64,000 nucleotides of DNA. Source: Massalongia carnosa. Its lineage: Eukaryota. The stretch covers positions 124,001 through 188,000 of the forward strand of contig OZ287082.1 in NCBI GenBank assembly GCA_965645245.1. Direction: 5' to 3'. The position numbers were made by a program, and so were the translations under genes. The notes beneath the pieces were generated by a model that saw only the letters and a program-made list of their open reading frames with translations, ran no database searches and was not told the origin of the DNA. Positions 23,101 to 61,616 of this stretch are shown here, piece by piece (within the stretch, counting starts at the first letter, position 1; each line of letters begins with the position of its first letter).

Positions 23101-26100
23101 CCCCCAGCTAGCGCTCCCCTAAAACGCCCATTGAGCGGCTGCGCTCTGCTGCGGGACTCAGTCTCAAACGAGACCAGATTCTGTGGTGGTTGAATTATTG
23201 ATATTTCAAAAACGTGCCTGTTTGGTATCGAACGCGAAGCTCTTGTCTCCCATCTATCGGTTTCAAAGATTTGTAGTCCTCTAAGACTACGTATATTACC
23301 CAAATGAGCGTACATGCCCATCGTTTGTTGAAGGAATTCAGCCCCAAGAAAAGGGACCTGCACATCCTTCGCGACCACCCCAATCCTTCGGTAGAGTATG
23401 GCTTCCTTGGATATCATGGCATCTTTGATGCATCTCACAAGCAAAAGAACTGACAACGAGCACAGTATCTTGGCTGTACACGGACTCGCTGCCGATCCCA
23501 TCGAGACTTGGGTCGAAAAGAAAGAAAAATGGAACTGGCTAGAGAATCAGCTGGTTGAAATCATTCCTGAAGCTCGAGTGTGGACATTCGGCTATAACTC
23601 GAGTTGGTGTGGAGACAAATCAGTCGACACGAGGCTCAATGAAGTAGCAACCAAACTTCTAGACGCTATAATTCAGAATGTATTTTCTTCATGTCATTCG
23701 AAACTTGTGATTCTGAGACATACTCAACGGTCACTAGGGTCTCTTGCACAAGCGTTTGGTATTTTTGGCCCATAGCTTTGGCGGAATTGTCGTTCTCAAG
23801 GTGCCGTTTGGCTGTAAGTGCAAAGATACACTATTGCTTACTGCTATAGGCACTTCTCATGGCCGAAAACCCCGATAATGGACTGGCCAAGCATGGAAAG
23901 GCCCTTAATTTGTTTCAGAGTATCGACGCGGTCCTTTTCTTTGGGACCCCCTTTCGTGGGACACATGAATGGTTTCAAAAAGATCTGCCAAAAATCGCCA
24001 GTGAAATCGAACCTCATGTTGATGAAGGGGTGTTTGAGACAATTCGGAAGGGAAGCGAAACCCTCGATCAACTGCGGAAAGATTTTATAGAAAAACAACA
24101 TAGATACAGAAAACCCAACATAGGCTGTTTTCAAGAGTTACAGGTTTCGAATATTGGTAAAATAGTCGGGAACGAAAAAATCTCAAAGGTACATAGCGCT
24201 TGAGATATAAATATAGCAGAGTTATTTGAAGCTAATCAGATGTACCTAGATAATTCTTGTTCGAAGAAGTGATGCAATTTTGGAAGGTCCGTCGACGGGA
24301 GAACCTCGAGTCTTGGTTCGTCCACTTGAGCGGAATCATTTCAATATGCACAATTTTGGGAAAGATGACCCTGTCTTTCGAACTGTTGAACAAGTTCTAA
24401 AAGCTATTCTTCCAACTCATCTCTATAATACTCCTACCCAGTTGGCCCCGGAAGATGAAGGTATAGGTTTACTTTGCAAATCATTGTTTTCGTACGGGTG
24501 GTTAATATGAATCATAGCAGGCATTCAGTTCTTATCCTTCCCGGAGATGAATGATCGATTTCTTGACATAGAGAAGGCATCTCCAGATACGTGCTATTGG
24601 TTACTTCAAAACCAAACCTATCGCAACTGGTCGGACCAACGCTCAGACTTGCTATGTATAAAAGGCAAGCCTGGTGCTGGGAAATCTACTTTGATGAAAT
24701 TTGCCGTTGCAAACAGAAGCGACCAAAGATCCGTGCTAGCGAAGTTCTTTTTCCACGCTCGCGGCACAGAGTTACAAAAGACCCCTTGTGGCCTATATAG
24801 ATCGCTTTTGCATCAACTCCTTTTACAGGTTCCATCTCTACGCCTCGATTTTCGGCAACACTATCTCGAAAAGAAGCAGGCTCACGGACAGTGTAAATGG
24901 CATGATAACGAGATGCAGGATCTCTTGACCGCTAATATCAGAAAGGCAGTCAAGCTTACTCCCGTTACTATTTATATAGATGCATTAGACGAATGCGGAC
25001 TGGAAGAAGAAAGAAGACTTGCCTCTTATTTACAAGATCTAACAACCAAAGAACCGGTCAAAATATGCTTCTCATGTCGCCATTATCCTCATATGAGCAT
25101 GACCGATTGCTCGGAAATTCTTGTTGAAAAAGAAAATGGGAATGATATAGTCAAGTACATTAACACGTTTTTCGAAGCAAAATCATGGAATATTGCCGAA
25201 GGCCATAATAGCGAAGTCATCAAGGAAATCAGAGAGGATGTTATGAACAAGTCCTCCAATGTATTTCAATGGGTCTTTCTGGTTCTCCAGATCATAGATA
25301 AATTGAGAGCGAAATTCAAAACATGGAAAATTGTGCGAAACAAGATACGAGAGGTGCCTCAAACCCTGAATGACTTATACACACATATTCTTTCGAGTCT
25401 TGATCTTGACGACGAGCAACGAGCTCAGTCATCAACCTTATTGCGGTGGATATGCTTTGCAAAGCGACCGTTGAGCCCGAATGAACTACGCATCGCAATG
25501 GCGTTTGATACGGATGAACCGCCCTCATCTCTCGAAGCCTGGGGAGAATCTGATGGATATTATGAAAATAACGAGGAATTTGGGAAGCTAATCACGACTT
25601 TATCAGGAGGACTTGCAGAGACTGTTCAAACAGTAAGTGACTATGAGAGTGGCGATGAGAGTGACGATGGGATTGACGATGAGAGTGACGATGAGAGTGA
25701 TGAGTATAAAGATAAAAGGTTTAGTGATCGGACATGCACTGTTCAGTTCATCCATGAATCAGTCAATGATTATCTCAAGAACGAAGGCCTTTCAAAGCTG
25801 GGTATTCATCGCGCAGAGAGTGTTGAAGGTCAATGTCATAACCAGATGGCAAAAGCTTGCATTTACTATATCAGATGCGACGATATTTCCGTATATAGGC
25901 TCCGGAAGGTTTATACCTTAAAACATGAATACGAAGAAAAAGAGGGACTCTTCTTCTATGCACTAGAATACTGGTTGTGGCATTCCGAAAAGGCAGAAAT
26001 TGAAAGTTGCTCGCAAGAGCAGCTTTTGACATGGTTCGACTTTCCATCTCCTATCATCTTCCAGAATTGGCTCAATCAATATTGTGATAAGATGTCCGAC

Positions 26101-26373
26101 AGCTATATGTTCGGAAATAAGATAATTCAACGGGACGCAACATTACTACACATTGCCTCGGTTTCGAATTTGATGAGTTTAGCTAAGACTCTCCTGATGC
26201 GGAGTGATGTAACTGTCGATGCTACAAGTGAAAAGCTCGATACACCCCTCATTTCAGCATCCGAAGCAGGAAACGAGGCAATGGTGGAATTTCTGTTAAA
26301 AGCGGGAGCGGACATCAATGCACAAGGCGGAAAGTATGGCAACGCGCTGCATGTTGCCTGTATGCATTGAAAA

Positions 26374-27075
26374 ATGGCGATAGTAGAATTGCTGTTGAAG
26401 GAGGGAGCGGACGTCAATGCTCAAGGCGGAGAGTATGGCAACGCGCTGCAGGCTGCCTGTTGGCGTGGAAACATGGCGATAGTAGAATTGCTGTTGAAGG
26501 AGGGAGCGGACGTCAATGCTCAAGGCGGAGAGTATGGCAACGCGCTGCAGGCTGCCTGTTGGGATGAAAACATGGCGATAGTAGAATTGCTATTGAAGGA
26601 GGGAGCGGACGTCAATGCTCAAGGCGGAGAGTATGGCAACGCGCTGCAGGCTGCCTGTTTGCGTGGATACATGGCGATAGTAGAATTGCTGTTGAAGGAG
26701 GGAGCGGACGTCAATGCTCAAGGCGGAGGGTATGGCAACGCGCTGCAGGCTGCCTGTTGGCGTGGAAACATGGCGATAGTAGAATTGCTGTTGAAGGAGG
26801 GAGCGGACGTCAATGCTCAAGGCGGAGCGGACGTCAATGCTCAAGGCGGAGAGTATGGCAACGCGCTGCAGGCTGCCTGTTGGCGTCGAAACATGGCGAT
26901 AGTAGAATTGCTGTTGAAGGAGGGAGCGGACGTCAATGCTCAAGGCGGAGAGTATGGCAACGCGCTGCAGGCTGCCTGTTGGCGTGAAAACATGGCGATA
27001 GTAGAATTGCTGTTGAAGGAGGGAGCGGACGTCAATGCTCAAGGCGGAAAGTATGGCAACGCGGTGCAGATAGCT
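26374..27075 (+). repeat. Seven near-identical 99-bp ankyrin-coding tandem repeats, one with a 24-bp internal duplication
   Basis: Units start at 26374, 26473, 26572, 26671, 26770, 26893 and 26992; duplication at 26800-26847. Confidence 0.97.
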
Positions 27076-27181
27076 TGTCAAAGTGACAGCGGAGATGAAA
27101 GAATGATAGAGTTGCTGTTAAAATGGGGAGCAAAGGTCATGCGCTCAAGGCGGAAAGTATGGCAACGTGCTACAGGCGGCC

Positions 27182-27474
27182 TGTTAAATGGCAAGGTTAT
27201 CATCGGTTAGATGGTCAGACTACCACTAACATAGGCATCCATCGTGAGCCTCGGGAGGTGCCTTGCAAAGTTCCAAAAAAAAGCAGATATGGGAGTCAAG
27301 GTCTGATCGTCAGGGTGCCTAAACAAGCAAATATGGGGAGACAAGGTCTGACCGTTTAGGCTCCTAGATGTGACTGTTTTGTGACTGCTATATAAAGCAG
27401 ACAAATAGCCCATATAGATAATCACCTTCAATGACAATCATGCTACTATACCTACAAAGTGAATTTATATTTCA
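27182..27474 (+). mobile_element. Copia-type solo-LTR-like insertion in the NLR 3' end (boundaries approximate)
   Basis: TAGGCATCCATCGTGAGCCTCGGGAGGTGCCTTGCAAAG resembles TGGGCATCCATCATGAGCCGCAGGAGGTACCTGGCAAAG in the Copia-1 LTR. Ankyrin coding resumes at ~27476; no TSD found. Confidence 0.6.
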
Positions 27475-31336: not shown

Positions 31337-31919
31337 AGGACCTTATCAAAACTTTCAGGGAAATGTGTCGATTTGGGCCTGATTTACTAGGACAAATGTC
31401 TACTGCATCTTCGACGAAAAGTCCTCAGAAAAGTCCTCAGAAAGCACCTGATATTTCACAAAGTAAGCCTATTTGTTCTTTTCAAAGACGATTATTACCT
31501 CCTCCCGTGCTTCAACCAATGACAGAAGAGGTAGAGGGGGTGGAGGAGGTAAAGGTAAGTGGTGTCATGGAGTGACTGGGCACCTGCCACACTAACCGGT
31601 TAGCCGGTCCGAAAGGAACTAAGCTTAATCCGGACCAGTTAGGGCAACGGTAGGTGTTCCGGCCGTCAATAGTGTCATGGCGATAGTGTCATGCCAGGGA
31701 CTCGAGGGAAATTGGATCAATAGCTGGATCGGGACTAGTTCCGTTCGCCAGAGTCTTATACTCGCCCACGTTTGATTTTCTGATTCTTTTCTCCTTGTCG
31801 AACGTCTTGTCCACCTAGCTAGACAATCAAGTAATACGTTTGCACCACCTGAATTCCTACCTGACCTCGCACCGTGACACTACGTTCGACCAGCCTATTC
31901 ACCTGGTGCATCATCATCA

Positions 31920-33067
31920 TGTCCATCAACCTCGACCCCCCTACCTCCGTTTCCAACGCCGACGAACTGAGCACTGCAGTGCAGCAACAGCCACAGGCAT
32001 GGCTCGACTTCCTCCTTCGCGTCACCAACTTCTCGGTTAATGCTCAGGAAATCATTACCAGCTTAGAGACTGACAAAGCATCCGCACTATCTTCCCTCGA
32101 ACAGGCTAATGCCACTCTGTCCGAGAATGCAGTCACCATGGCCGCTGGACAAGCAGTCATGGACGAACTCCGCACCAATCTGGCCGATGCCTCGCAGTCT
32201 AAATCGCACCGTTCCACCAAGCATCCGGACCCATCTTCCTTTGGTGGCGATAAGGCAGAACTGAGAGGATGGATGACACAACTCCGAATTAAACTGAACA
32301 TCAACAAGGACCACTACCCTACCGAACAAAGCAAGCTCGCTTATGCACTAAGCCGCTTGAAGGAGAGAGCATTGGAACAACTGCAGCCGTACCTGGAAAA
32401 AGATGGAAACATCGCTCTTGCTGATATGGAAGCGTTCTATACCAAATTGCAGTTGGCCTTCGGTGACCCCGATAGAAAAGCAACCGCACAAAGGGAACTG
32501 CGACAGCTTCGACAAAAGAACAAAGAGTTCTACTTATACCTCTCCGACTATCAACGCCTTGTTCCCGACACCGGCTTCGACGATGAAGCCAAACGTTCTA
32601 TTCTTCTGGACGGTCTCAGCGATGAGTTAAAATCCGCCCTAATCACAGTGGACCTACCCACCTCGTTGGACGACACCATCCAAATTCTCCAGAAAATCGA
32701 CAATCGATTCCGCTCCGTCCAGGCCTCCATCCGCAAACCATTCTCATATGGTTCATCTCGCTCTTCCTCCGCTCCGTCCACTCCGACTACTAAAACCTCT
32801 TCCACCCCCAGCACTCCCGTTCCTCGCCCCGCTCCCATCTCACCTGCAGATACGGATGCCATGGACCTGTCGACCTCCAGGCGTCGCGGTCCCATCACCC
32901 CGGCGGAAAGATCACGCCGCATGAACGAAGGACTATGCATGTACTGCGGAGGGTCAGGACATTTCGCCAATTCCTGCCCAGCCTCCAAGGGAAAACCTAG
33001 AGTGAGGACATATGAATTGAGCACGGTGACTCCGGAAGAGGAGGGAAAAGTTCAGTCTTCGGCCTAA
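31920..33067 (+). CDS. Gypsy-2 Gag (start codon approximate)
   Basis: KHPDPSSFGG, DAMDLS and CCHC knuckle CMYCGGSGHFANSC. Confidence 0.92.
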
Positions 33068-36000
33068 GTCGCGGCCGAAGACAAAAAGAAGCTATTTCGA
33101 TTTCGGCATTTTCCTTGTCCAAAGAACCTCTGTCCGAAGAAGATCTGGATGGAAGGCATTTGGTTGTGTCTCTTGTTGTTTCCATAGGAACAATCAAAAT
33201 CAAGACTTATGCATTGATTGATTGTGGAGCATCTGGATTTGCCTTTGTTGATTCCTCGTTCGCGCACCACCATCGCATACCCCTCGCCCCCATGAAGAAA
33301 CCCCGTATTCTTGAACTCGCAGACGGCCGTCCCGTGTCGTCTGGAAAGCTTACTCACCTCGCACGTCTGAACCTTGACATCGCCTCGCATTCCGAACCCG
33401 CTAACCTTCTCGTCACCAGCCTCGGCCACTACCCCATCGTTCTCGGCATTAAATGGCTGCAAATTCACGACGTCAGCATACGATGGGCCACGAACTCTCT
33501 CACTTTCAACTCACCTTACTGTCGTCAGCACTGCCTTGACAACTCCGAGTCAAACACGGTCATCGGCATAACCAATGTTCCAGAACTCCGCGCTGAAAAA
33601 CCCCTCGTCGTTGAAAGTAGCGCTAGTCCCGACTCGACAGCGGCAATCACCGAAGACTCTAGTCCCGAAGCGGTTAGATTTGACAGGCCCAGCCGGTTAA
33701 ATCGGCGCGTTAATCCAGCGATCGCCACCCCCTCGCCTATCTTACCCGCGACCTTGCCCGTTCCGTCCCCGTTCGTCCCGTTCTCGCTCATTCCGACGCC
33801 GACCAATAAGAATCCACCATTGAGCATATGTATGATAGGGGCAGCCCCCTTTACCCGTTTAGCGAAGAAGAAGGAGTGTGAGCTCTTTACCGTGAACATG
33901 CGAGATATTGAACATGCCTTGAACCCCAAGCCGGAAGTTGATCCTGCTACCGTGTTGCCGTCGGAATATCATGAATTTCTTGATGTATTTTCCAAGAAAG
34001 AAGCTGATAAACTTCCAGAGCGACGTAGCCATGATCATAAAATTCCGTTGATGGAAGGAAAGGAACCCACGTATGGCCCGTTATATGGCATGAGTCGAGA
34101 TGAACTGTTAGTTCTGCAGAAGTACCTGACGGAAAACCTGAAGAAGGGTTTTATTCGGTCCAGTTCTTCCCCTGCTGCGTCCCCGGTGTTGTTCGTTAGA
34201 AAACCAGGCGGAGGCCTGCGTTTTTGTGTTGATTACAGAGCATTAAATGCGATAACGATCAAGAACAGATACCCCCTACCTTTGATCAGAGAAACCTTGG
34301 ATCGCTTGAGTAAGGCAGTTATCTTTACTAAGCTGGATATTGTCGCGGCCTTCAACCGTCTCCGTGTAGCTCATGGAGAGGAATGGAAGACTGCCTTTCG
34401 AACACGCTATGGATTATACGAATATCTTGTCATGCCGTTTGGACTCTGTGGAGCCCCATCCTCGTTTCAGGAGTACATTAATGATGTGCTTCGTGAATAT
34501 CTAGACATCTTTTGCACCGCGTACATCGATGACATATTGATTTACAGCAACTCCCTGAAAGAGCACAAGGATCATGTGAGAAAAATACTGATGGCCCTAG
34601 AAAAAGCCGGATTACAACTTGACATCTCGAAATGTGAATTCCATGTCACGGAGACCATTTATTTAGGAATGATAGTATCCAAAGACGGCATAAGAATGGA
34701 TCCCAAGAAAATTGAGACTATTCAGAATTGGAACACTCCAGAGAACCTAAAAGACGTGCAGGCCTTCATAGGATTCGCGAATTTCTATCGTCGATTTGTC
34801 AAGGGGTTCTCTCGCATAGCTGGACCACTGACAGCTATGTCAAAAAAGAAGACACCATTCGTATGGACCAATGACTGCGCCAATGCTTTCGAGGATCTGA
34901 AGTCTATGTTTACTAGTGACATTGTTCTGCTGCATTTTGACCCCGATAAGGAAAGCGTGGTTGAAACTGACTCTTCTGATTATGTCAATGCCGGAGTCCT
35001 CTCGCAGTATGATGACGATGGAGTCCTTCGCCCCGTAGCCTTTTTCTCGCGACGTTTGTCCCCGGCGGAGTGCAATTACGAGATTTATGATAAAGAGCTA
35101 TTAGCCATAATACGTGCCTTCGAGGAATGGAGACCAGAACTTCAAGGAGCTGCATACCCGGTTAAAGTAATCACTGACCATAAAAACCTGGAGTATTTCA
35201 CCACCACCAAGCAGCTAAGTAGGCGACAGGCCCGTTGGGCAGAATATCTCTCACGTTTCGACTTCAAAATCACGTATCGACCCGGCAAATTAGGCGGAAA
35301 ACCTGACGCTTTGACTAGAAGATCAGGAGATCTTCCTAAAGAAGGGGACGTGAGACTGGAACATCAGAATCAGGTGGTATTAAAACCGCATAATTTTGAA
35401 CTTCATGCTAACAACGTGCCTCGTGTGACTGACGTGTCCGACTCTGAACCTGACATCGCACCTGACATCGCTATTGAACCATCGAACCTCGCCCCTGCCC
35501 TCGACTCGGAAGAGAAATCTATAGACGAACTCATTGATCTAGGATATGAACATGACCCCACGCCTAACAAAATCCTGACCCTTCTCCGAAACGGTGCTCG
35601 ACACAGCAAGGACATCACCCTAGCCGAATGTGAAGACAGGAATGGAAGACTATACTACAAGGAAAGGCTATACGTCCCTGACTGGCATGAACTAAAAAAT
35701 GAGACTATGCAAAGAATATCATGACAGTCCAGTCGCCGGTCATCCAGGCAGATCTAAAACATTTAGTCTAATGGCGCGAGACTACTACTGGCCCCGATAT
35801 CATCAGTTCATTGCTCGCTATGTCCAACACTGTCATACATGCTCTCGCAGTAAAGCTTCTCATCATGCTAAGTACGGAGTGTTGAAACCTTTGCCCGTTC
35901 CCCAACAACGATGGAAGGACATATCCATGGATTTCGTCACCGGCCTACCCGAAAGTAGTGATAAAAACGCCGTATTAAGCGTTGTTTGTCGGCTAACCAA

Positions 36001-37000
36001 GATGAAGCATTTTATTCCCTGCAGAGAGACCACCGACGCTAAGGCCTTGGCTAGACTATACGTTGAACATGTCTGGAAACTTCATGGCCTACCTGACTCC
36101 ATTGTGTCGGATCGAGGAGGCCAGTTCATAGCTGACTTTTGGAAAGCACTTTGTGAACGACTAAGGATCAACAGTCGGCTATCTACGTCATTTCATCCGG
36201 AGACTGACGGTCAAACGGAACGTTATAATGCAGTCATGGAACAATACCTCAGAGGCTATGTGTCCTATCAACAAGATGATTGGACCGACTGGCTACCCAT
36301 GGCTGAGTTCGCTAGTAATAACTCCGACTCCGAAACAACGTCCGTCAGCCCGTTCCTTGCCAACTATGGTTTCCACCCCCGTCTTGGTTTTGAACCTGTT
36401 CATCGCGACTCCCCCAATGCACATGTCATTAGCGCTGATGAATTCGCCTCCAAAATGCAAAGTATCAGTGAACACCTCGGAGACGAAATGCGCCTAGCTC
36501 AAGCACGTTATGAAGCATCTGCTAATGCAAGTAGGACCCCGGCTCCCAAATTTCAGATCGGTGACGAGGTCTGGTTGGACGCTAGACATATAAAGACCAA
36601 ACGGCCGTCGCGAAAGTTGGACTGGAAAAAGCTTGGAAGGTTCATTATAAAGAAAGTTGTCAGCAAGTACGCATACGAGTTAGACCTTCCCGCCTCCATG
36701 AACGTTCATCCTGTATTCCACGTCTCCCTTCTAGAGCCTGTCTCTCAACACCCTCACGTCGGCCACATACCCGCTCCTTCCCCTCCTGTCGAAGTTGAAG
36801 GTGAAACAGAGTGGGAGGTCGAGGAAATTTTGGACTCTCGTTTCTTCCGAAGACGCTTACAGTACCTGATCAAGTGGACTGGTTGGGACGCACCCGACTG
36901 GACCGAAGCTAAGGACGTCACCCACTGCTCCGACCTACTGGAAGACTTTCATCGACTGAGGCCTAACAAGCCTGGTGGTCCTCGCGGAGCTCGGACCTAA
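33043..37000 (+). CDS. Gypsy-2 Pol (PR-RT-RH-IN-chromodomain); one +1 A frameshift near 35694-35699
   Basis: ALIDCGAS, AYIDDILIYS, YDKELLAI, SDRGGQF, ETDGQTER, EWEVEEILDSR..YLIKWTG. ORFs 33115-35724 and 35699-37000 join at an A6 run. Confidence 0.93.
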
Positions 37001-44637: not shown

Positions 44638-47578
44638 GGGAACGGATAACAGGACACCACTTTGGTTAGATAAACACCACCTCCGGTTAGGTAAATACCG
44701 CTAGCCCAGGTAGGGTAGATTCCTCGGCCCCGCCCGCCTCTTCCCCTTTTAGGTCTAGCGGTTGAAATTCCCATATTCTACCTGTACCTCATCCTTGCAC
44801 TCATATTTCACATTTGATCTGCAGGCACCCTGCCGCCGCCATGTCGTCATGCCGCTTCGACCTCCCGAAGATAGTCAATCCTTTGTATCACTAGAAGGAG
44901 CATGCCGCCACCGAAGGCTACGCCGTTGTGCTTCTTCGAACCAAGAAAACCAAGCTGGGAGTGAGAAATAAAGCTTGGTTAAAATGCGACCGAGGTGGAA
45001 AAGTCAGAGAACCGCAGGGTCAGGATCGTCGGCACACCAGCAGTCGACTAATTGCTTGTCCATTTGCCCTGACAGCCAAAATGGACGACGAGGTGTGGTT
45101 TTTGGAGGTGGTAAATAGGACACACAATCATCCGTCCAGTCTTGCTGGCTCTCATCCTGCCTTGAGAAAAATCGCTCTGACCGGAGTAAAGGATGACGTT
45201 ACCAGACAGTTAACAGTACAAACGTCGGCGTCAAAGGTTTTGTCTAGTCTGCGTGTTCCCGATGTGAAGGCAGATCTCAGTCCTCATGATCCCAATGCCG
45301 AGATCATTGTGAATCCGATGTTTAAACCTCGGGACATCTACAACTTAAAGGCGCAGATGAGACGTGATGTCTTGGGACTATTGACTCCTCTTCAGGCAGT
45401 GATTCGTGAGTTTGACGAAAAGGATTGGGTGTACAACTTTCAACAAGACATTCATCAGCAGATTACGCATCTCTTCTTCATCAAGGGCAGTTCCCAAACT
45501 CTTCTGATAGATAATCATGAAGTTCTCATTATGGATTGCACGTACAAGACCAATCGATACAAAATGCCTCTTCTCGTCATCAGCGGACAAACCGCGCTAC
45601 ATACTATCTTTTATGTCGCCTTTTGCTTTCTGATCACGGGGAAAGCAGAGGACTACATCTGGGCTTTACAGCAATTGAAGGAGGTATATTCTCGATTGGA
45701 ACTTCCTGATTCGATTATTCTCGTGTCCGACATTGAGAAAGGATTAATGTTGGCATCTTCTATAGTCTTTCCAAATATCAATCATTTGCTATGCATCTGG
45801 CACATCGATCAGAATGTGTTGACAAATTGCAAAAAAACTTTCGACAATGAGGAATGGAAGATCTTTTTGTCAGCTTGGAAATCAGTAATCTATGCAGCAA
45901 CCGAGCCTCAATTTTGGAAGCTATGGGAGCAGTTTTCTGCTATCTATATGACTTCTCATGAAGATTGTATTCGATATTTGAAGTCCACCTACATTGATAA
46001 TTATCGCGATCGCTTTGTGGCATGCTACACCAACAAGGTGCTGCATTTTGAGACAACGGTAACGTCGCGAGGGGAAGGCGTACATGAAGTATTAAAACGT
46101 CAATTAGGATCATCGACCGGAGATTTGAAGCTGGTAGTTGAAGGCATTAATCTGCTACTAATAAATCAGTATCATGATCATCTGATTGCTTTTTATTGTA
46201 ATTGAAGATCTGCTGGCATAGTAAAAAGCTCACTTTTGAAACGATTGATCTTTCTATCTACCTATCTAAGGACCGTGTTTATATAGATAGAAAAACATGC
46301 CGAAAACCGTTCTCCCTATGACTCACCTTCCTGCTTCCTAGAAATCTAAGATTGGTGATTGACTCATATCAAATTTATGACTCGATAGGAATGTTCATAG
46401 AAGTTTTGCGGTGCTTCTCGAGGTCGTTATGTGTTGCCTAATGTTCTTACCAACGCACTAATCCCAATGCGGTACCATGTGACTCTGAACACTTTACTAG
46501 GCATCAGCCGGGTGACTTTGCACATTACAACACTTTTGAAGAAGCCAGAACACGTTTTCCACTTCATCTTCGCAAAGTTATCTTCCAGCAACTGAGAGCA
46601 TTTATCAGTCCCTATGCCCTGAAAAAGATTCTACACCAATACGAGTTATTAACAGGAAGACCGACAGTTATTCCAGCTTGTACCAACGTCTTCACAACTA
46701 TCACCGGCTTGCCTTGTAGTCATCTGATTCAGCAACGATTATTCGAGAATGAAGGAAGTCTGACATTAGAAGATGTGCACCCGCATTGGAAGTAGGTTAT
46801 TGTTATTTAATCGATGGTCAGCGATCAGCTACTAACAACAGTTCACGGTTGGAAAAGCGCGCCCCTCCGATTGCTTTGATTAATCCTCTTCTTCTAGTGA
46901 GGGAACCGGAGATAGCCCGACCTCGTGGTCGCCCTCAGGGAGCGGAAAACAGACGAGCGGAGGCATTGGACAATTCCACTCATCGATTACCATCTCAATT
47001 CGAACAGGTTGAAATGGAAACAGCTGATGCAATAGCTCCGGAGGTGGAACGAGCTATTCATCGAGCCAATACTACACCAGGCAGGGTAGGACGTCGGGGG
47101 CGAGGGCGAGGGCGAGGACGAGGGGGAGGGAGAGGAGGGGGAGGGGGAATTGGTGAAAGAGCTGAGACAAACACAAGGACCGGCCGAGCTAGGGCTAGGG
47201 CTAGTCGAGGCAGAGCTGGTCGAGGAAGGGAAGACGGGATTGGCGGGGATGCAGCAGATGGAATTGGCGGGGATGCAGCGAATGCGGCTCCAATCAACTG
47301 ATTTGCATTACTAAGCTTCAAACAAAGGGTGCGATTCATGAAGACAGTGCCAATCGACAAATCCAATGTCTAGTAATCGATGGTTGAAAGCTGAATTGAA
47401 TTTTTTCTTGAGGTGTCAATGTTGGGATGTGGACTGCTAGACCTAAAAGGGGAAGAAGGCGGCGGGGCCGAGGAATCTACCCTACCTGGGCTAGCGGTGT
47501 TTACCTAACCGGAGATGGTGTTTATCTAACCGGAGGTGGTGTTTATCTAACCAAAGTGGTGTCCTGTTATCCGTTCCC
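44638..47578 (+). mobile_element. Mutator-like element (MULE) with decayed transposase
   Basis: About 120-bp TIRs starting GGGAACGGATAACAGGACACCACTTTGG (the right copy has a ~21-bp duplication), 8-bp TSD AATAAAAA; MDCTYKTNRYKMPL, LLCIWH, TSRGEG.H, GLPCSH. Confidence 0.93.
46194..46532. mobile_element. Solo LTR inserted in the MULE transposase
   Basis: TATTGTAAT...ATTACAACA, TSD CTTTT; removing it restores HLIAF|EEARTRFP. Confidence 0.88.
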
Positions 47579-50826: not shown

Positions 50827-52121
50827 TGTTGAATATCCAATTCTTTCAAGTACAATGAACACTTATCAGTTCAATATACATAGCACCTACGGCTGCCCTA
50901 GATTGACAGATCATGGAAACCGTAGATGCCGCATTAGGCTTAGTCCCAAGATATGATAAGATTACCTCGCTTAGAAGGGTGACCAGTAATAGGAAAAGAT
51001 TGCTGCATAGCAACTCTTCATCCTCAACATAACGGTCAAGCATACCTTTATTATAACATAGGCATAAAGCAATAGTCATATATCTATTTTAACAGGTTTT
51101 GAGCCCGGAAGGGATCTATCGATTTAAAACGAATAGAAGCTTTTAATCCGCAGCATCGCAGTGCAATCAGCTAAACACCGTTCCTATTCAATGAATCGTA
51201 GACACATTACTAAAATCTTTCTGTTTCTTTAGAAACGATCCCTCAAATCACATCAATCAGTTCACTCTTCTGTACACAGCGATTTCTTGTCAGAAGTACA
51301 AAAATTACGTATTAGATAGAGTGTGAACATATTAATTGTTCTACATCGAAGCCCTCGGACACCGAAGAGCTTGCTTAGCTCGATGGTCGAAGGCACCCAA
51401 GTCTGGAAACCAAAGAGCTTGCTAAGCTCGAAGGTCGAAGGCACCCAAGTCCTCGGACACCAAAGAGCTTGCTAAGCTCGAAGGTCGAAGGCACCCAAGT
51501 CCTCGGACACCAAAGAGCTTGCTAAGCTCGAAGGTCGAAGGCACCCAAGTCCTCGGACACCAAAGAGCTTGCTAAGCTCGAAGGTCGAAGGCACCCAAGT
51601 CCTCGGACACCAAAGAGCTTGCTAAGCTCGATGGTCGAAGGCACCCAATTCCTCGGACGCCAAAGAGCTTGCTAAGCTCGATGGTCGAAGGCACCCAAGT
51701 CCTCGGACGCCAAAGAGCTTGCTAAGCTCGATGGTCGAAGGCACCCAAGTCCTCGGACGCCAAAGAGCTTGCTAAGCTCGATGGTCGAAGGTACCCAAGT
51801 CCTCGGACGCCAAAGAGCTTGCTAAGCTCGATGGTCGAAGGTACCCAAGTCCTCGGACACCAAAGAGCTTGTTAAGCTCGATGGTCGAAGGCATTCAAGT
51901 CCTCGGACACCAAAAGAGCTCGCTAAGCTCGATGGTCGATGGCAAAAAAGTATATTGCTGGGCCTGAGCGCCTCATTGGCACAAATATCATCAAAGCGTC
52001 AGTTTCAACCGCGATTGAATTCTGGACACGCAAAAATACAAAATCCCTCGGACATCAAAGAGCTTAGTAAACTCATTGATCGAAGGCACAAAGACCTTTC
52101 TTTTTGGCAATTATGCCTCAT
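50827..52121 (+). mobile_element. Copia-3 5' LTR (50827-51094), PBS and non-coding internal region; truncated or non-autonomous
   Basis: The LTR is followed directly by GGTTTTGAGCCC, the same PBS type as Copia-2; no gag ORF is visible. Confidence 0.75.
51353..51943. repeat. Tandem array of about 12 x 50-bp units with an internal hairpin
   Basis: Unit CCTCGGACACCAAAGAGCTTGCTAAGCTCGA(A/T)GGTCGAAGGCACCCAAGT; a degenerate extra copy lies at ~52046-52089. Confidence 0.98.
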
Positions 52122-52344
52122 TACAGTCGACTGCAAAAGGTTGGTCGCGACCCTGAATTTGGGACCACACATCAAATATTTACGCGAAAATGGCAAAATG
52201 CCGGCAAAAATCCGAAAAACTACCCTCACCGCCTACATGCCAATGAAGTCGTACTACTGGTCAGTATTGAAGCGACTTGTAGATTAGTATATGTAGATGC
52301 CATTCCCCGTCTTTTTTCCCTCTCTCCTCTGCCATTTTCCCAAA

Positions 52345-53393
52345 ATGCCCCCCCCTCTCAGTGAGACCCTTCGTGAGACAATCACGCTTCGTTTTGTACG
52401 AGGTGACAGCAATAAGACAATTGCATCTGTCACTGGTGTTGGCATCAGACAGATTCAACGAATGAGACGTAATTGGACTCATTTTGGAGATGTGGTTCTA
52501 CCTCAATTGTCAATTGGACATCGCCCTCGTAAACTCAGTCAATTTCATGAGATTGAACTTCTGAAATATCTGGAGCAACGTCCGCATGCCTATCTGGACG
52601 AAATGTGCTGGTTCATTTGGGACCAATTTCAGATCTCTGCAGATGAGACCACCGTTGGTCGTGCCCTAAAAATGCTTGGTTGGAATCGAAAGAAGGTGAT
52701 CAAACAAGCAGCTCAAAGAAATCAAGGCCTTCGAGATGGATGGATGCAGAGACTCGGAGAATGGACTGCAGAGCAATTGATCTTTTTGGACGAAAGTGCA
52801 GCTTGCGAAAGAACCGGCTATTTCCTATCTCATCTTTCATCCCATCTTCGTCATTTTTCTGACTTTCTGACTAGGTGATCGACGATACGGATGGGCTCAG
52901 GCAGTCGTCCCTCCAATCATGATTCAGGATTTGAAAAGGTCAAAGAAATGGAGCATTCTTCCTGCATTTACCGTCGATGGATATATATATAGCTTGGGAG
53001 GTGCATCAGGGCTCCATAACTGCCGAAATTTTCAACGGCTTCGTTCGAAATCAGGTTCTTCCTCAGACGACTGCCAATGGAGGTCCTAGATCTGTTTTAG
53101 TACTAGATAATGCCAGCATTCATTGGAATCAGGAGCTTATTCAGATGTGCGAGACAGCCTACGTCACCTTGGCACGACTACCTCCTTATTTTCCAGATTT
53201 CAATCCAATTGAATCGTCGTTTGCATTGCTAAAGGCATGGATTCGACGGAATGGAGAAATGAGTCTTTCGTACACGGAGGAGTATGGGGGATTCGGACAA
53301 TTTCTTCGGGATGCAGTCAAAGATCTGAGAATGGGAGACCCGGGAAATTTATTTAGATTGGCTGGCATTCAGTATCCCACCATTTCAATCTAA
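52345..53393 (+). pseudogene. Tc1/IS630-like DD34E transposase; probable intron ~52817-52874; +4 frameshift in a (TA)n run at 52982-52991
   Basis: HTH, YLDEM, LIFLDES, VLVLDNASIH..LPPYFPDFNPIE, with 34 residues between the second D and the E. Confidence 0.9.
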
Positions 53394-53408
53394 TTAGATA
53401 CATAGTAT

Positions 53409-56400
53409 CTAATCCTCATCTTCATCTTCGGCATAATCGTATTCTAGACTATGCGTCTTATCTTCCTCAATTGTATCTCTCACTCCAGATCCTACCTCCC
53501 CGCCCCCGTTCACCTCCCCATCCTCCATCCCCTTATCCACCCGAGTGACCGCCTGAGTGACCGCCTGAGTGACCGCTTGAGTGGCCATTTGCGATGTCGG
53601 TAAATGGCGTTGACGCCGAGGGGGAGGCGGGGGCATTTGCTGAGATATCTGTCGAGACATTTGCAAAGGCATTTGCCGAGACATTTCTCTTCCAAATTTA
53701 CTGACGTCTCGCGCCAGTTGAATCCCGATTCCCGGAGGAATTCCTAGCTCCTGCCAGAACGTCTGATGCTCGATGCCTTTCAAGGATTGAACGGTCATCA
53801 GATCGTACCCACCTTCCATCAATCGATCGCAGGCGTTGGTGAGCACTCCTTTCAAATGAGGCTTCATTTGAACGAGCCAACTGACATAGTCTTCCAGATC
53901 TTCTTCCACTGGACTGCTGCGGCGGACGGAGAGGAGAGGGAGAAATCGACTCACGCTTCGACTGCTTCTGGATGATCTCGAATCTCTCCAATCCAACGGC
54001 GTTTCCTCACGGGCTCGTCTCGAGTCAGGTAATGTAGAAGGAGCATACTGAGAAGGATAAAATGCCGAGGGGGGAAATGCCGAGGGGGGAAATGCCGAGT
54101 GAGGAAATGCCGAGGGGAATGCCGAGGGAAATGTCGAGGGGAATGCCAATGACGAGGGGGGAAATGTCGAGTGGGGGATTTGGTACGAGTGGTGTTGATA
54201 CATGGGATGTTGATAAATGGAATGCCCACCTCCAAAGGGCGTTTCCTGAGACGAGGTTTCCTGTTTTGGAGATGATGATTCAGTCTTTTTCTTACCTTTA
54301 TTCAGGGAGAATAAATTCTCTCTGATCTTCGGTGGAGGTGTTCGAGAATCAACGCCTGAAATTCCATCATCTAGTGCTTTATTCCAGGTCACGAAATGAG
54401 CACTGTTGAGAGGATAATGCTGATTCTTCGTCTCATCATTCCAACAGTACTGTCCGAAATTCCTACATGCGCGTTTTTCACAGAGATGCAGACTTTGCAA
54501 TTCGGACATTCTTTCGGCCGTCATGCCTTGCAACATGGCTCGTTCCTCCATCTCTTTTTGCAGCTTCATGGTCGCGGTTCCCAATTTCTTGGTGGCGACA
54601 GCTGTGGCAGCAGCAATAGGATCATCGGGAGGAATGACGCCATCTTTGGTACGACTGAAGATGAAAATAAGATCAACCGCGAAGCTTTTCTTTCGAATGC
54701 TGCTGTCTTCTAAATGAATTAGAACCTCCTCAATGGGCTGCCAGGATTCGATCAACATGAGAGCTGATTTTTCATGCGGTTTGATTCCATTCCATAACAC
54801 GGTCGCTTTGATATCGACCAAATGACAAGCATACATTTTGGAATTCGCATACGTCTCGGCTTTCAAACTCATGTCCCCGGTGTAGCTTCTCAAAAAGAAT
54901 CTTTTCGACGTAGTTGAATTGACTTCGTATGGAATCACCGTCTCGAAAACGACGTGCTTCTCATACGACATCTTCACATTTAGTAGATATTTGATTACCG
55001 TCGGAGGCAGTGGCGAAGGGGATAAACGGGAGGGTTCCTTTCTTCTTGGTTTTCTAGACTTCTTACTGACAATCAAGTTACTAGGCACATTGAGATCTTC
55101 GACATCATCTTCGGCATCATCTTCGGAATCATCTTCGGCATCATCTTCGGAATCATCTTCGGCATCATCTTCGGCATCTACAGCTTTCATCGCGTTCTCC
55201 TTTCTCCACTGACCCTGCCACCTCTGCTTCTCGTCTTCATCCGTCCAGTCGTCGGAGGAATCCTCCGTAATGACAAGGGGACTATAATAATTCGAATCGA
55301 AAGTCTTTGACTGCTGAGGCTGGACCTTTGACTTGGGAGGGGCCTTTGGCTTGGGAGGGACCTTTGGCTTGAGGGGGGCCTTTGGCTTGAAGGGGGGCTT
55401 TGACTTGAGGGGAGGCTTTGGCTTGGGAGGGGCCGACGTCGATTCCGGCGAGGCTTCATCGATGCCGGCGGCGACAATGGCTCTGGCTTTCGGCCCTCCC
55501 AAAGTCAGTTTGATTCTCTTACCTTTGAAAGGCTCTTTTGTTAGATGAGACAGCCATCCTATGTGCCGTGCCAGACGGCAACATAACGGCTTGGGAATAA
55601 CGTCTCAAGTGATCCGCACACGGCTAGCTAATGAGGTGGTACGGCAGGGAGATTCAAGGCAAACCTGCCCTGCCGCTGTGCCTGCTCTCTATCTTATTCA
55701 TCTCTCATCTATCTAGCTATATAAACATAGTAGATAGCCACCTAGATAGAATAATCAATCCTTCCCACACATACTATTACCTACCTATTTAACTCAACAG
55801 GTTCTGAGCCCGGCTGCACTTAAGCGCACCCTTTTAAAATAGTATCGATTGATTCCCTATCTCTCCTCCTTTATATCAAAACTACCATTCCCATTCTCTC
55901 TCCATTCGCTTTTCTCCCCTTGCTCCAAGATGGCAAAGAAAGACCTCCCCTACACTTTCCCCAAGCTATACGGCAGCACCAACTATAAGCAATGGGCTCG
56001 CGATATGTCGTTCGCCCTCAGCGAAGCCGAGCTGCTGGGATATATAACGGGAGATAGGATCAAGCCAGAGATAATGATACCAACGGACAAAGATGACGAC
56101 GTCCGCATTCGGGAAATCAGGCAGAACAGCCTTGATTTGATGGAGTTTAAGGAGAAAGAACAAAGAGTGGTAGGCAAAATAGGGAGAATGTGCTCCAAGG
56201 ATGTGCAGTCTGAATTCCTCTCTATTTTGGGAAATATAACCATCATAGTCCCCCTAAAGCTCTGGAAACATCTGGCGGCACGTTACACCCTACAGAATTG
56301 GAGCTCGAAGTGGGCTACTTTCAACAGGCTAGATGAGATTAACTATGAGAAGTGCAAGTCCATCGAAGAATATGGTGCCCTGATAGAGGAGATCGAGGCC

Positions 56401-59400
56401 GAGATGATAGATAGTGCCCTCACCATCAAACAGATGATCGTTCTCAAAATGTTGAACGGACTCGGATCCAGCTTCTCCACCTATCTCACCATCATTAACG
56501 AACATGCTCGCCGGGACAAGGAGCTCCCTGACAAAAGCAGCCTTCTTAAAAATCTGGCAGATGAAGAATCTCGGACGAAGACTACCACCGAAGCTACTGC
56601 CAACTTCGTAAAGAAGAAAGGAAAAGGTAAGGTCACCGAAACAAAATTAGATGATAAAGATAAGTGTCATCGGTATGGAAACAAACATTCCGATACGTGC
56701 AAATTCATCAAAACGAAGTGCACCGGATGTGGAAAAATAGGGCATATTGAAAGAGCTTGCAATAGCAAAAGGGGAAAGGAGAAAGACGATGACTCGGATG
56801 TCGAAAGGAAGAAAATCTTCTGCGTACTCACCACTCATTCTCCTCCTTCAACAGACTCCTTTGTCTTCCCTGACACTGCTGAAGAAGATGGCTCTAATAT
56901 CAAGCACCCCGAAACCAATATTAACAAGACTTTCCAGACAAGGAAATTTCTCTGCACCATCAACCGCTCCATCCCCATCTCTAAACCAGTAGATTTATTG
57001 ATAGATTCTGGTGCTACTGACCATGCTCTTTGCAACAAAGACCTTTTCGAACCCGGATCCTATCGCATTATGCCAAATAAACTGGAAAAAGGCTCCGGAG
57101 AGGTGCTAAAAACAGAAGGAAGAGGATCTTTGTCTTTATTCTTAAAGAACGAAACAGGAGGTGTTCGAGAGTTTGTTCTAACAGACGTTCTGTACACTCC
57201 TGACCTGAACTTCAATCTCATCAGCACTGCTAGGCTAGCACAAAAGGGAGTGGAAATTTTCCTTCGAAAGGCGGGGGAACTCTCCAAAATCTATTACGAA
57301 GAGGAGGTAATTGGCCACACCAAACTGATCGATAACCAGTATGTTATCCAAACCACACCCAACTCTCGCGCTCTCGCAACAACCAAGAATATCTCCATCC
57401 AAACCTGGCATGCCCGTATGGGGTATCTTGGTTATCACAACCTTTTGAAGCTCAACCAACTGGCCACAGGAGCCTCAATCATCGGTTCCGTTCCGGAAGA
57501 AATCTGCGGAGATTGCATGGTTGGAAGGCAACAAAGGCTGGTAAACAGGAGCCCAAGATCTCGAGCTCCAGAATTCCTGGGAATCATTCATACAAATCTT
57601 GGAGGCCCTTACACACCAACCAGGTACGGTGAGAGATATTTCATGACCCTAAAGGATGACGCAACGGGCGTCGTATGGGTATTTCTGTTGAAGACCAAAG
57701 GCCAAACACTTGACAAGTTCAAACAGTTCAAGGCCTGGATAGAGAAGCAATCTGGCCAGAAGATCAAATACGTCAGAGGGGATGGAGGGGGAGAGTATGT
57801 AAACACAGAGCTACTAACCTTTTTTAAAGAAGAAGGAATTCAATGGGAGGCCAGAGCTCCATATGTGCCTGAACAAAATGGGAGAGCCGAACGGCAAAAT
57901 TCCACCCTGATGGCAACAACGAGGAGCTGGCTCAAAGCCAAAAGGCTCCCAAAATCACTCTGGGGCGAGGTAATCAAAACCTCTGCCTACATCAAGAATC
58001 GATGTCCCGGCGTCGATGAAATCACACCATATGAGCGCCTCAATAAGGAGAAGCCTACCTTAAGCCACTTAAGGATCATAGGTTCGAGGACGTGGGTGCA
58101 TATTCCCAAGGAAAAAAAAGGACCAAATTGGATGATAGATCTTGGCAAGGGATCTTTGTTGGATACGATGGAACAAATCAGTTTCGAATCTATGACCCTC
58201 GCACCGGAAAAGTTCACATCTCTCGTGATATACAAGTAGATGAGCTTAACACCTATGATTCCAAAGAGACGAAGGACTGGGACCTAGCTGATGTAGCATG
58301 GGATGAAGATGATGATGCTTGTTTTCAAGATCCAGATGACTTTGAAGATCTGAAACATAAAAATAGCACTCCACTATATCCGGCATCAAATTCCCATAGT
58401 TCATTGAACAGCCAACAACGATTATCGCTAACAACACCTCGAAATGAGTCTTATCCAATGGGAGAAACAGCTCCGGAGGTAACCAATGATGATACCAATC
58501 ATCGAGACCAGGAATCTGAAGAATCTGACCCAGATCAGCCTTCAATTCCCGCACCAAGGAGATCCGGAAGGTTACGAAATCCTTCCAAACCTGCAGCAGA
58601 CACTATTCGGTACGATATATCGAAGAAATCGCTGCCAAAAGTGGCCAACGACGGCCATTTGGTAAACAAAGTTACCACATTTACCAGCACCCAGACCCCT
58701 AAATCCCACGAGCATATGGTAAGAGTCCTAGCTCTACTAGCCAGAGGATCGGAGACTGCTGGGCAGGATGAACCTGCAACATTGAGAGAGGCTATGGCCT
58801 CCCCCCACTGGGATGAATGGAGAAAAGCTATGGAAGCTGAGTACCAATCCCTGATGGATAACGAAACTTGGACTTTAACCGATGCTCCAACGGATAGGAA
58901 AACTATCACAGGACGGTGGGTTTTCAAGCTGAAAAAGGATAGAAATGGAGATATATTGAAGTATAAAGCAAGATGGGTAGTCCATGGATATAAGCAAAAA
59001 GAAGGCCTAGATTACCTAGACACCTTTGCCACCGTGGTAAAACCTATCTCCTATAAGACACTGATAGGAATCAGTGCTAAAAGGGGTCTCTCCATTCGAC
59101 ACATGGATGTTGTGACTGCCTTCCTATACGGATATCTCGATGAAGAGATATATATCATCCAACCAACCCTGTTCGAAGTAGCAGGGGGAGAGCAGAAGGT
59201 CTGCTTGTTGCGAAAGGCTCTATATGGGCTAAAGCAATCTCCTCGTGTTTGATATCAAACCCTATTGGATTTTCTCCAGAAGATAGGGTTCAAACACACC
59301 GAATCAGATCATGGAGTGTTTGTTTCCGAAGACATGTTTATTGCCATCTATGTGGATGATCTTCTCATCATGGGCAAAGACACTTTGAAACTGCAGCAAC

Positions 59401-60680
59401 TCCAAGCTGAATTGAAGTCGCGATTCCAGATGACGGATCTGGGTGAAGTATCGCACTATTTAGGCATCGAGGTAGACATTAGCAAAGATAGGTCTACTAT
59501 CGCACTCCGCCAAACAACTTATCTAATGAAAATCCTCGAACGGTTCAACATGGCTAATTGCAAGCCTATTTCAACCCCCATGGAGCCTGGAATCGGAAAC
59601 ATTCTCATGCCATCCGAAGACCAGGCTGATAAAGAGACTATATCATGGTATCAGTCTCTGGTAGGGTCTCTCATGTGGCCCGCCATGCATACAAGGCCTG
59701 ATATAGCCTATGCAATGGGAGTTCTAAGCAGATATTGCTCCAATCCAGGTGCTGATCACTGCAACCACCTACAGAGAGTGCTTCGATATATTTCGGGCAC
59801 CCTAACAAGAGGTCTGATATTCCGGAGAGATTCTGACGAGGATATAACCGGCTATTCTGACTCGGACTTCGCTGGCCTAAAGGATGGGAGAAGATCTACC
59901 GGTGGGTATGTTTTCATGTTAGCAGGTGCTCCGATATCTCATTCGTCAAAACTACAACCTACGGTGGCGCTATCCTCTTGCGAAGCAGAATACATGGCAT
60001 TAACGGAGGCTACCAAGGAAGCTCTATGGTGCTCTCGTTTTCTCAACGAACTGGGATTTCGGGAGGCCAATTTACCAATTCTACTGCGAGGAGATAACCA
60101 AGGTGCTATAGCTCTCACCGAAAATCCAGAATTCCACCGAAGAACCAAACATATCGAAATAAAGTGGCACTGGATAAGAGACGTAGTCAAAGAGGGAAAG
60201 GTCAAAATAGAGTATATCCGTACTAACGAAATGGTAGCAGATGGGCTGACTAAGCCACTGCCCTCTAAGACTTTCAACTCTTTCGTAAACATGATGGGTA
60301 TGGGGCAAATCACTAATAAAAATCTCTAAATAGCCTCACTGAATGGCTGAATGGGAGTGTTAGATGAGACAGCCATCCTATGTGCCGTGCCAGACGGCAA
60401 CATAACGGCTTGGGAATAACGTCTCAAGTGATCCGCACACGGCTAGCTAATGAGGTGGTACGGCAGGGAGATTCAAGGCAAACCTGCCCTGCCGCTGTGC
60501 CTGCTCTCTATCTTATTCATCTCTCATCTATCTAGCTATATAAACATAGTAGATAGCCACCTAGATAGAATAATCAATCCTTCCCACACATACTATTACC
60601 TACCTATTTAACTCAACATCTTTTCCAGCCGGGGGGGGGCCGGAATTTGATCTTTTTGCTCTCGGTTCACGAAGTTTCAT
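53409..60680 (-). CDS. Unknown 728-aa protein carried by the Tc1 element (60680-60619 + 55533-53409), split by Copia-2
   Basis: Removing Copia-2 and one TSD gives a continuous ORF MKLREPRAKRSNSGPPPAGKE|PFKGKRIKLTLGGPK... of 2187 nt. Confidence 0.82.
55539..60618 (+). mobile_element. Full-length Ty1/Copia (Copia-2)
   Basis: 261-bp LTRs at 55539-55799 and 60358-60618 (identical by eye), TSD TCTTT, PBS GGTTCTGAGCCC, PPT GAATGGGAG. Confidence 0.97.
55930..60329 (+). pseudogene. Copia-2 gag-pol with an A-run frameshift near 58112-58119 and a TGG>TGA stop at 59250-59252
   Basis: CTGCGKIGHIERAC, LIDSGAT, RGDGGGEY, YKARWVVHG, MDVVTAFL, LYGLKQSPR, IYVDDLL, MVADGLTK. Confidence 0.94.
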
Positions 60681-60914
60681 ATCTGAGATAAAAAATGGGG
60701 ACTGGCAGAGGGGGGAGGGAAAAAAGACGGGGAATGGCATCTACATATACTAATCTACAAATCGCTTCAATACTGACCAGTAGTACGACTTCATTGGCAT
60801 GTAGGCGGTGAGGGTAGTTTTCAGATTTTTGCCGGCATTTTGCCATTTTCGCGTAAATATTTGATGTGTGTTCCCAAATTCAGGGTCGCGACCAACCTTT
60901 TGCAGTCGACTGTA

Positions 60915-61616
60915 TGTAAAGCGGATTTCATGACTTTTTCGTTGACGGGGGCTGCAAATCATTTGATTCGCGTAAGGGATCAATGGGAAAATAGAGCTCG
61001 CGCTGAAAAAGCTAGCTTTCTTACTACTAGCACGGCCGAATGCCAGGAATGCCCTCATCTACGAAAATTTCCCTTTCCAGTGCAAAAGCTTATAGTTGAT
61101 CAATGGAAGCTAGCTGCTAAAAGCCTAGCAGACGGTGAAGCACCGGCAGGTGAAATGCCAGATGAGCTGACATGTCCTGTAGATTGTTTATTTTATCGAC
61201 AATATCAACTTCCATGCAGGCATCTATGGCATTATCACATCGTTTTTGAGATGTTTCAGGAGTCCGATTGGTTGGCTTGGGCCGAGATGTTTGAAGATAG
61301 CGGCTTTGAGATGTATGAAACGTTGGCTAGACTGAATATTGAACGTCACGAAGATATCGAGGAACCTGATCGTCATATGCTGCAGATGAGGGAGGTTTTA
61401 GACACTATAAAAGAGAAATTCTACGAGGTTATGGAGCACACCGCTGATTGGACAGCTGAGGAAAGAAATCCTCAAATAGAGAGATGGCTTGGCTGGCTGG
61501 AGAAATTGACTGGCCCAATCAGAAGACAGGGGGTGGAGGAGGCCTTGCAAGAGCTGAAAGATGAGGCGGCGACGGGGGGATTTTGGATGCGGCGACGAGA
61601 TGAAAATGATGACTAA
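60915..61616 (+). pseudogene. C-terminal fragment of a SWIM-finger (MULE-type) transposase-like protein
   Basis: CPVDCLFYRQYQLPCRHLWH fits a SWIM-like CxxxC..CxH; three ~30-bp repeats follow at 61618-61702, possibly subterminal. Confidence 0.6.

Follow-up and report, generated by a model that had tools for sequence, protein, structure and literature searches.

A Tc1-family (DD34E) transposon of Massalongia carnosa with a convergent second gene encoding an unnamed protein

A 64-kb stretch of the Massalongia carnosa genome (contig OZ287082.1, assembly GCA_965645245.1; hereafter the window, in whose coordinates all positions are given) contains a Tc1/mariner-type element at 52124-60912. The element measures 3,704 bp when a nested Copia retrotransposon and one copy of its duplication are subtracted, and is made up of two terminal inverted repeats (TIRs) and two convergent genes, a transposase gene and a second open reading frame (ORF), ORF2 (Table 1). 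The TIRs are 97% alike over about 211 nt, with six mismatches and one 1-nt gap, and diverge beyond that point. The terminal 29-mer CAGTCGACTGCAAAAGGTTGGTCGCGACC occurs exactly twice in the 64 kb, at 52124 on the forward strand and ending at 60912 on the reverse strand, against a chance expectation of 0; a search of the TIR for an internal second repeat of the inverted repeat/direct repeat kind found none. The start codons follow closely on the TIRs: that of the transposase is at element offset 222, 10 nt past the inner TIR end, and that of ORF2 at offset 233 on the opposite strand, about 22 nt past its own TIR. Translation of the two genes ends at a TAA (53391-53393) and a TAG (CTA on the forward strand, 53409-53411), respectively. 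The original prediction had described a 3.7-kb Copia-free element filled by two TIRs of about 210 bp and two convergent ORFs, with start codons about 10 and about 23 bp inside the TIRs and stop codons 15 bp apart; this layout was reproduced, and all of its figures were correct.

Table 1. Features of the Tc1-family element and, in the last five rows, of the rest of the window
Feature	Position	Strand	Remarks
TA target-site duplication, left	52122-52123		abuts TIR end
Left TIR	52124-52334	+	about 211 bp; starts CAGTCGACTG; from inverted-repeat alignment
Transposase exon 1	52345-52816	+	putative helix-turn-helix N-terminus; first catalytic D
Transposase intron	52817-52874	+	58 nt; two CTGAC branch-like motifs; 3' AG; GC donor in this copy
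Transposase exon 2	52875-53393	+	DDE_3; second D and E; stop TAA
Spacer between convergent stop codons	53394-53408		15 nt
ORF2 codons 20-728 and stop	53409-55538	-	P0001, 709 aa
ORF2 C-terminal helical domain, SAM-like/RAD51-N-terminal-like	53643-53915	-	motifs SSPV and LGIPPGIGIQLA
ORF2 C-x4-C-x6-C-x8-H motif	54417-54482	-	P0001 C353, C358, C365, H374
ORF2 beta-grasp/PB1-like domain	54648-54998	-	model residues 22-138, predicted local distance difference test (pLDDT) >90
Copia long terminal repeat (LTR) retrotransposon	55539-60618	+	interrupts ORF2 after codon 19-20
ORF2 first 19 codons	60624-60680	-	MKLREPRAKRSNSGPPPAG; start common to homolog P0004
Right TIR	60703-60912	-	from inverted-repeat alignment
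TA target-site duplication, right	60913-60914		abuts TIR end
Ty3/Gypsy elements with chromodomain integrases (two)	5843-10911 and 31919-37000		
piggyBac-type transposase	4096-5319		
Tc5/pogo-type helix-turn-helix	15691-16788		
Copia reverse transcriptase piece	2659-3630		
NACHT/NPHP3_N-ankyrin gene	24547-27210		

The transposase gene had been taken for a single ORF, which overlooked an intron, an altered splice donor and a frameshift. The first reading frame stops after ...ACERTG, and ORF-called homologs all end or run off there too, while NCBI gene models of homologs splice at this place, joining ERTG to DRRYGW. We assigned the intron because these gene models continue across the same point. 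Position 52818 is C in the window, giving a GC donor, versus T and a GT donor in public sequencing runs. A 4-nt insertion at about 52982-52985 of the window copy was absent from all four public runs compared; without it the frame gives ...FTVDGYIAWEVHQGS..., matching homologs. With insertion and intron removed, the family form of the gene comprises 328 codons without a stop, and a script count placed the catalytic residues at D149, D234 and E269, the DD34E arrangement. The C-terminal part of the protein matched Pfam DDE_3 (PF13358; E 1.9e-15, 57.5 bits against a cut-off of 28.6), precomputed PF13592 assignments were present among its homologs, and the N-terminus gave HTH_33 and HTH_32 scores (21.1 and 20.7 bits) that were both below the cut-offs. 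With the +4 frameshift and the GT-to-GC donor change, the transposase gene of the window copy is defective.

An ATG within the TIR itself (TIR offset 174; 52297 and 60739) shares the frame of the transposase on one side and of ORF2 on the other, and would yield a common leader, MPFPVFFPS.LC, identical in its first nine residues and in 12 allowing one substitution. This ATG is probably not a start codon. The leader is not conserved among transposase homologs, and since most of these begin at the later MPPPLS, its shared frame was judged to be a coincidence.

The element has a TA duplication, TIRs, a DDE_3 transposase and a 34-residue D-E spacing, and so shows every structural character of the Tc1 (DD34E) family that was open to testing, in line with its earlier designation as Tc1-type. 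Like fungal Tc1 elements of the IS630-Tc1-mariner superfamily, it has TIRs that start with CAGT, and the N-terminus of its transposase is probably of the helix-turn-helix type. Unlike that family, it adds a convergent gene of 728 codons and has long TIRs (about 211 bp).

ORF2 is intronless, and its 728 codons are free of stops and in frame across the site of the Copia insertion. The start at 60680 is supported by the same N-terminus, MKLR..., in homolog P0004. The Copia element has LTRs of 261 bp each (55539-55799 and 60358-60618) and is flanked by a 5-bp duplication, TCTTT on the forward strand, at 55534-55538 and 60619-60623. Its LTRs are 100% identical, and the insertion is therefore very recent. 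Copia pol is spread over three ORFs (55930-58239, 58458-59252 and 59334-60329) with RVT_2-type content, as in the other Copia piece of the window; public contigs are 2 nt shorter at 58112, so the window Copia seems to be frameshifted despite its youth. Because the Copia interrupts ORF2 and the transposase carries the +4 frameshift and the GC donor, the window copy is dead on both genes. A 3.7-kb Tc1-family (DD34E) cut-and-paste transposon is represented here by a dead copy, in the genome of a filamentous, probably lichen-forming ascomycete.

Other copies were sought in public sequencing runs. All or part of the stretch was found in six runs from four studies, one of them labelled lichen metagenome, and four runs were aligned. 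In contigs from three of these four (X1, X2 and X3, from three studies), position 55533 is joined directly to 60619, skipping 5,085 nt. The skipped length equals exactly that of the Copia and a single duplication together, so DNA of the element without the Copia exists. The earlier statement that the insertion hides the layout from ORF finders holds. Contigs of the same three runs bridge both stop codons (X1 record 2, 52293-54822; X2 record 8, 53215-54353; X3 record 17, 53379-53982), and X1 record 3 leads from ORF2, past the unoccupied Copia site, to within the right TIR. Run X6 gave only four short pieces at a depth of about 2. These data show that the standard family unit is a pair of convergent genes, for a 328-aa transposase and the 728-aa ORF2 protein, between TIRs of about 211 bp.

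Differences between the window and the runs were also listed. The indels listed inside ORF2 measure 12, 12, 15, 24, 18 and 18 nt, all six multiples of three; this was taken as weak evidence because the repetitive stretches in which they lie have units that are themselves multiples of three. Listed differences are mostly A or T in the window versus G or C in the runs. Repeat-induced point mutation was considered as their cause and rejected, as only 7 of 23 transitions lie in a CpA/TpG context and the indices are normal.

The 728-aa protein had been described as unknown, and this was upheld. No Pfam model scored above its curated cut-off on ORF2 (best E 0.0059, 15.8 bits against 25). Three relatives were found by a word-indexed search, at 95%, 55% and 55% identity. 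An exhaustive HMMER search over 1.84 billion representative sequences, using ORF2 residues 160-640, returned 144 clusters at E <=1e-3, 44 of them at <=1e-10 and five at <=1e-30. Full-length members of the family have 560-810 aa, with identity down to 22%. The plan common to 16 aligned members begins with a basic N-terminus that has K/R-R-x-S-S and continues with low-complexity parts that vary, some 120 residues forming a conserved block, the C-x4-C-x6-C-x8-H motif with a conserved W and a PP..IR motif after it, a proline-rich linker, and a C-terminal block that opens with SSPV(E) and holds LGI.PGIG.QLA. At 1e-5, 24 of 25 long homologs had no Pfam family; the other contains a fragment of DUF7924 and is probably a chimeric gene model. 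Homologs named by their source are called 'hypothetical protein', and none has a host-type annotation. Two named records of the family come from lichen fungi, Brigantiaea leucoxantha (a metagenome-assembled genome) and Puttea exsequens, and no relative was found in two metagenome scans and one scan of prokaryote genomes.

The original prediction had allowed that ORF2 homologs might be ordinary single-copy host genes, and this is not what was found: one cluster at 55% identity has six members, at least 90% identical to one another, on six different Mb-scale contigs, one of which (3,767,895 bp) also carries the 95% relative, P0002. Judged by these sequence comparisons, ORF2 represents a conserved, multicopy and unnamed protein family, and the family is new to annotation. 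In P0002 itself the ORF2 stop codon is replaced by Y, and the frame runs five codons further to a TAA that overlaps the spacer beside the transposase stop.

A structure was predicted with AlphaFold2 for a 481-residue piece of ORF2, from an alignment of 91 sequences; 237 of the 481 residues had a pLDDT of at least 90, and three parts were modelled with confidence. Residues 22-138 of the model form a beta-beta-alpha-beta-beta-alpha-beta unit, whose nearest folds were the PB1 domains 4mjs_A (Z 7.2, root-mean-square deviation 3.1, 85 aligned) and 2npt_A (Z 6.4), along with further domains of the beta-grasp type; with Foldseek the best E was 9.4e-3, and there were no matches at <=1e-3. Residues 383-473 form a helical bundle, for which the closest folds were SAM domains (tankyrase 5jti_A, Z 6.3) and the N-terminal helix-hairpin-helix domain of RAD51C/RAD51 (8gj9_B of RAD51C, Z 6.0; 8faz_C, Z 6.3). 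An Atlas search returned unnamed Basidiomycota clusters (0.91) and a SAM cluster (0.80), which are leads only. PB1 and SAM domains typically self-associate head to tail, and hPGIG...A (hPGhG...A) is a classic helix-hairpin-helix DNA-binding signature, which we take the LGIPPGIGIQLA stretch of ORF2 to resemble. In addition, the N-terminus of ORF2 is basic, with KRxSS and repeats rich in PK, and the protein has acidic and FPS-rich runs of low complexity. The PB1-like and SAM- or helix-hairpin-helix-like folds, taken with this basic N-terminus and the acidic stretch, suggest a nuclear, DNA- or chromatin-binding protein that may act as an oligomerising scaffold.

A closer assignment of these domains is opposed by several results. 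Matches at Z 6-7 are middling, and because a Z below 8 may reflect common arrangements, PB1-like and SAM-like are to be read as descriptions of shape and not of family membership. The likeness to PB1, SAM and the RAD51/RAD51C N-terminal domain is one of fold, without a sequence-profile match: the Pfam PB1, SAM and HhH models did not match ORF2, and a sequence profile search of PDB gave nothing beyond weak Lon-protease rows. The middle Cys/His part, when modelled alone, reached a mean pLDDT of 82 and had no clear fold match (best Z 4.6).

We propose, with a probability of roughly 0.6, that ORF2 is an integral gene of a two-gene Tc1 transposon, whose product assists or regulates the transposition complex or shields the element from silencing. 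On this proposal ORF2 would be borne by the element as a working part and not as a passer-by. Both genes would be transcribed from the same TIR sequence, serving each as 5' region and promoter, since the element has no other upstream sequence and the ATGs lie 10-22 nt past the inner TIR ends. With stop codons 15 nt apart, the two transcripts would overlap tail to tail at their 3' ends, and feedback through antisense or small RNAs is possible. The ORF2 protein may then have a part in the assembly or control of the transposition complex at the long TIRs, or protect the element from host silencing. The original prediction had likewise put forward the TIR as a twin promoter and ORF2 as an accessory factor, for example in targeting or anti-silencing; both ideas are plausible. 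A bolder form of the proposal, which we consider rather unlikely, is that a lineage of Tc1 elements across lichen-forming ascomycetes encodes a self-polymerising DNA-binding scaffold, expressed from a mirror TIR promoter. Such a scaffold would either put together or control the paired-end complex at the long TIRs, or block silencing by the host. In vertebrate Tc1 elements the paired-end complex relies on host HMGB1; if the scaffold existed, this would be the first accessory-protein-dependent Tc1 family.

For evidence from diverged relatives, co-location of ORF2 and transposase homologs was assessed through identical sizes of the longest contig per entry, comparing 48 ORF2-homolog entries (30 of the 144 clusters plus the word-index relatives) with 66 transposase-homolog entries (drawn from 26 N-half and 47 C-half clusters). 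Five contig sizes were common to both lists, against seven in a positive control that paired the two halves of the transposase. A 3,050-bp contig size is shared by ORF2 homolog P0019 (54%) and transposase homolog P0198 (75%), both from JGI, and a 19,832-bp size by P0011 (39%) and P0179 (65%), both from ENA; roughly estimated, only about 0.003 matches near 20 kb would be expected by chance, which makes such a coincidence unlikely. The remaining three sizes, all from ENA, are 2,020,593 bp (ORF2 homolog P0153, transposase homolog P0166), 2,241,206 bp (P0003 and P0194) and 3,628,741 bp (P0150, with transposase homologs P0163 and P0192). Among ORF2-homolog contigs of less than 25 kb, 10 of 30 measure 3.0-4.2 kb and are thus element-sized, and a repeated 3.7-kb element is expected to collapse into a contig of that size in assemblies.

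Several observations weigh against an integral role for ORF2. Gene order, orientation and TIRs are demonstrated for near-identical copies only. The 3,050-bp match could be due to chance, as about 0.2-0.4 matches are expected among 1-4-kb contigs (again a rough estimate), and the Mb-sized matches do not establish adjacency. Distant full-length ORF2 homologs (22-30% identity, on 3-4-kb contigs) had no transposase partner in the two lists, a search limited by the word-indexed transposase searches reaching down to about 46% identity only. One X3 contig departs from the element shortly ahead of the transposase stop codon, at 53384, and may be a variant without ORF2 or carry another insertion. Furthermore, the window differs from the runs at 129 places, and all 19 single-letter coding changes among the 40 with the best support are nonsynonymous (11 of 11 in ORF2, 8 of 8 in the transposase), where about 78% would be expected for random changes; there is no sign of purifying selection among these copies.

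Some of these points would also be accounted for if ORF2 were a passenger, a gene captured once from the host or from another mobile element and multiplied since, with no part in transposition. This is unlikely, though it is the alternative to which we give most weight. It would agree with the confinement of transposase linkage to relatives with at least 39% identity in ORF2 and at least 65% in the transposase, and with the divergence of the X3 contig at the transposase/ORF2 boundary; a fungal composite element, MarCry-1_FO, indicates in the accessible parts of two reports that such composites arise and remain active (PMC3212892; bioRxiv 10.1101/2025.02.18.635021). Against it, ORF2 fills the space exactly from the inner TIR end to within 15 nt of the transposase stop without any spare flanking DNA. 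The family is moreover multicopy, with many members on element-sized contigs, and its named homologs carry no label other than 'hypothetical protein', which argues against a host gene carried along.

It is also conceivable, but quite improbable, that most of the ORF2 family has its home in a different, undescribed kind of element or in a multigene family of the host, and that it came to lie in this Tc1 element by a local rearrangement, for example through recombination between two Tc1 copies on either side of it. TA duplications cannot separate a true insertion from such a recombinant. On both sides of the window copy, other public contigs run on into different sequence (loose ends at 52123 and 60916), so both flanks are repeats, non-contiguous elsewhere, and the empty insertion site therefore cannot be reconstructed. 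Against a local rearrangement, contigs from three runs of three studies have the order inner end of the left TIR-transposase-spacer-ORF2 and ORF2-right TIR, and two short or mid-size co-location matches occur among diverged relatives. That ORF2 is an artefact of antisense reading or an open frame arisen by chance is barely credible. Its low-complexity acidic, PK-rich and FPS-rich runs speak for this, but the family spans 144 homolog clusters at identities as low as 22%, Cys/His columns and others are conserved in it, and three domains fold with confidence, which refutes the idea. An integral ORF2 is our preferred reading, and the anatomy of the two-gene element is solid.

Second genes are known from other transposons, including the Myb-like ORF of PIF/Harbinger, CACTA elements, MuDR (MURB) and VANDAL (VANC), and the ciliate TBE/Tec elements, of the Tc1/mariner group, have multiple ORFs. 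Where studied, the second proteins of such transposons act in DNA binding, targeting, nuclear import or anti-silencing. The Harbinger, CACTA, MuDR, VANDAL and TBE/Tec systems resemble the present element in pairing a transposase with an element-encoded second protein, but belong to other superfamilies or kingdoms, and no likeness to ORF2 in sequence or domains was found. The original prediction held that Tc1/mariner elements normally encode only a transposase; extra genes are indeed rare there, but are already known, since there is a published fungal exception. According to the accessible text, the MarCry-1_FO transposon of Fusarium oxysporum is a fusion between a Mariner-type element and a Crypton tyrosine recombinase and has 16-bp TIRs and TA duplications (PMC3212892), and it was among the most active elements of an evolution experiment (bioRxiv 10.1101/2025.02.18.635021). 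As far as those descriptions go, it is like the present element in being a fungal Tc1/mariner-type transposon with TA duplications and extra coding capacity beside the DDE transposase. It differs in that a tyrosine recombinase with a GCR1_C domain makes up its additional part and its TIRs have 16 bp, whereas ORF2 has neither a recombinase nor any other Pfam domain and lies between TIRs of about 211 bp.

A survey of fungal cut-and-paste transposons treats accessory domains in general terms in its accessible part, and names OTU, helicase and C48 protease as filter domains (PMC5751038). Of the Mariner class, the accessible part of a preprint on transposable elements of Peltigerales lichens mentions only Fot1 and Sagan. 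A literature search, with Repbase and Dfam outside its range, brought up no account of a Tc1 family in which this gene accompanies the transposase.

Tc1/mariner is the textbook minimal transposon, one gene between two repeats, and hence a tool for gene transfer. If our reading is correct, even this superfamily recruits accessory proteins. It would also give a name and a context to the unannotated ORF2 family with its 144 clusters, and a testable example of two mirror-image genes driven by a TIR. In genomes of lichen fungi, proteins of the ORF2 family are probably products of transposon genes and not of host genes, a point to be heeded in annotation.

The surroundings of the element are repetitive as well. 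Directly to its left (51305-52004), some 14 units of 50 bp are repeated in tandem, and the right flank (60915-61616) enters an ORF with a SWIM-like CxC...CxH stretch that has no Pfam match. A Mutator-like element (MULE) transposase domain is present at 45081-46205, and the Tc1 copy may lie within or beside a degraded Mutator-like element. The part of the window from 1 to 50000 is transposon-rich (last rows of Table 1).

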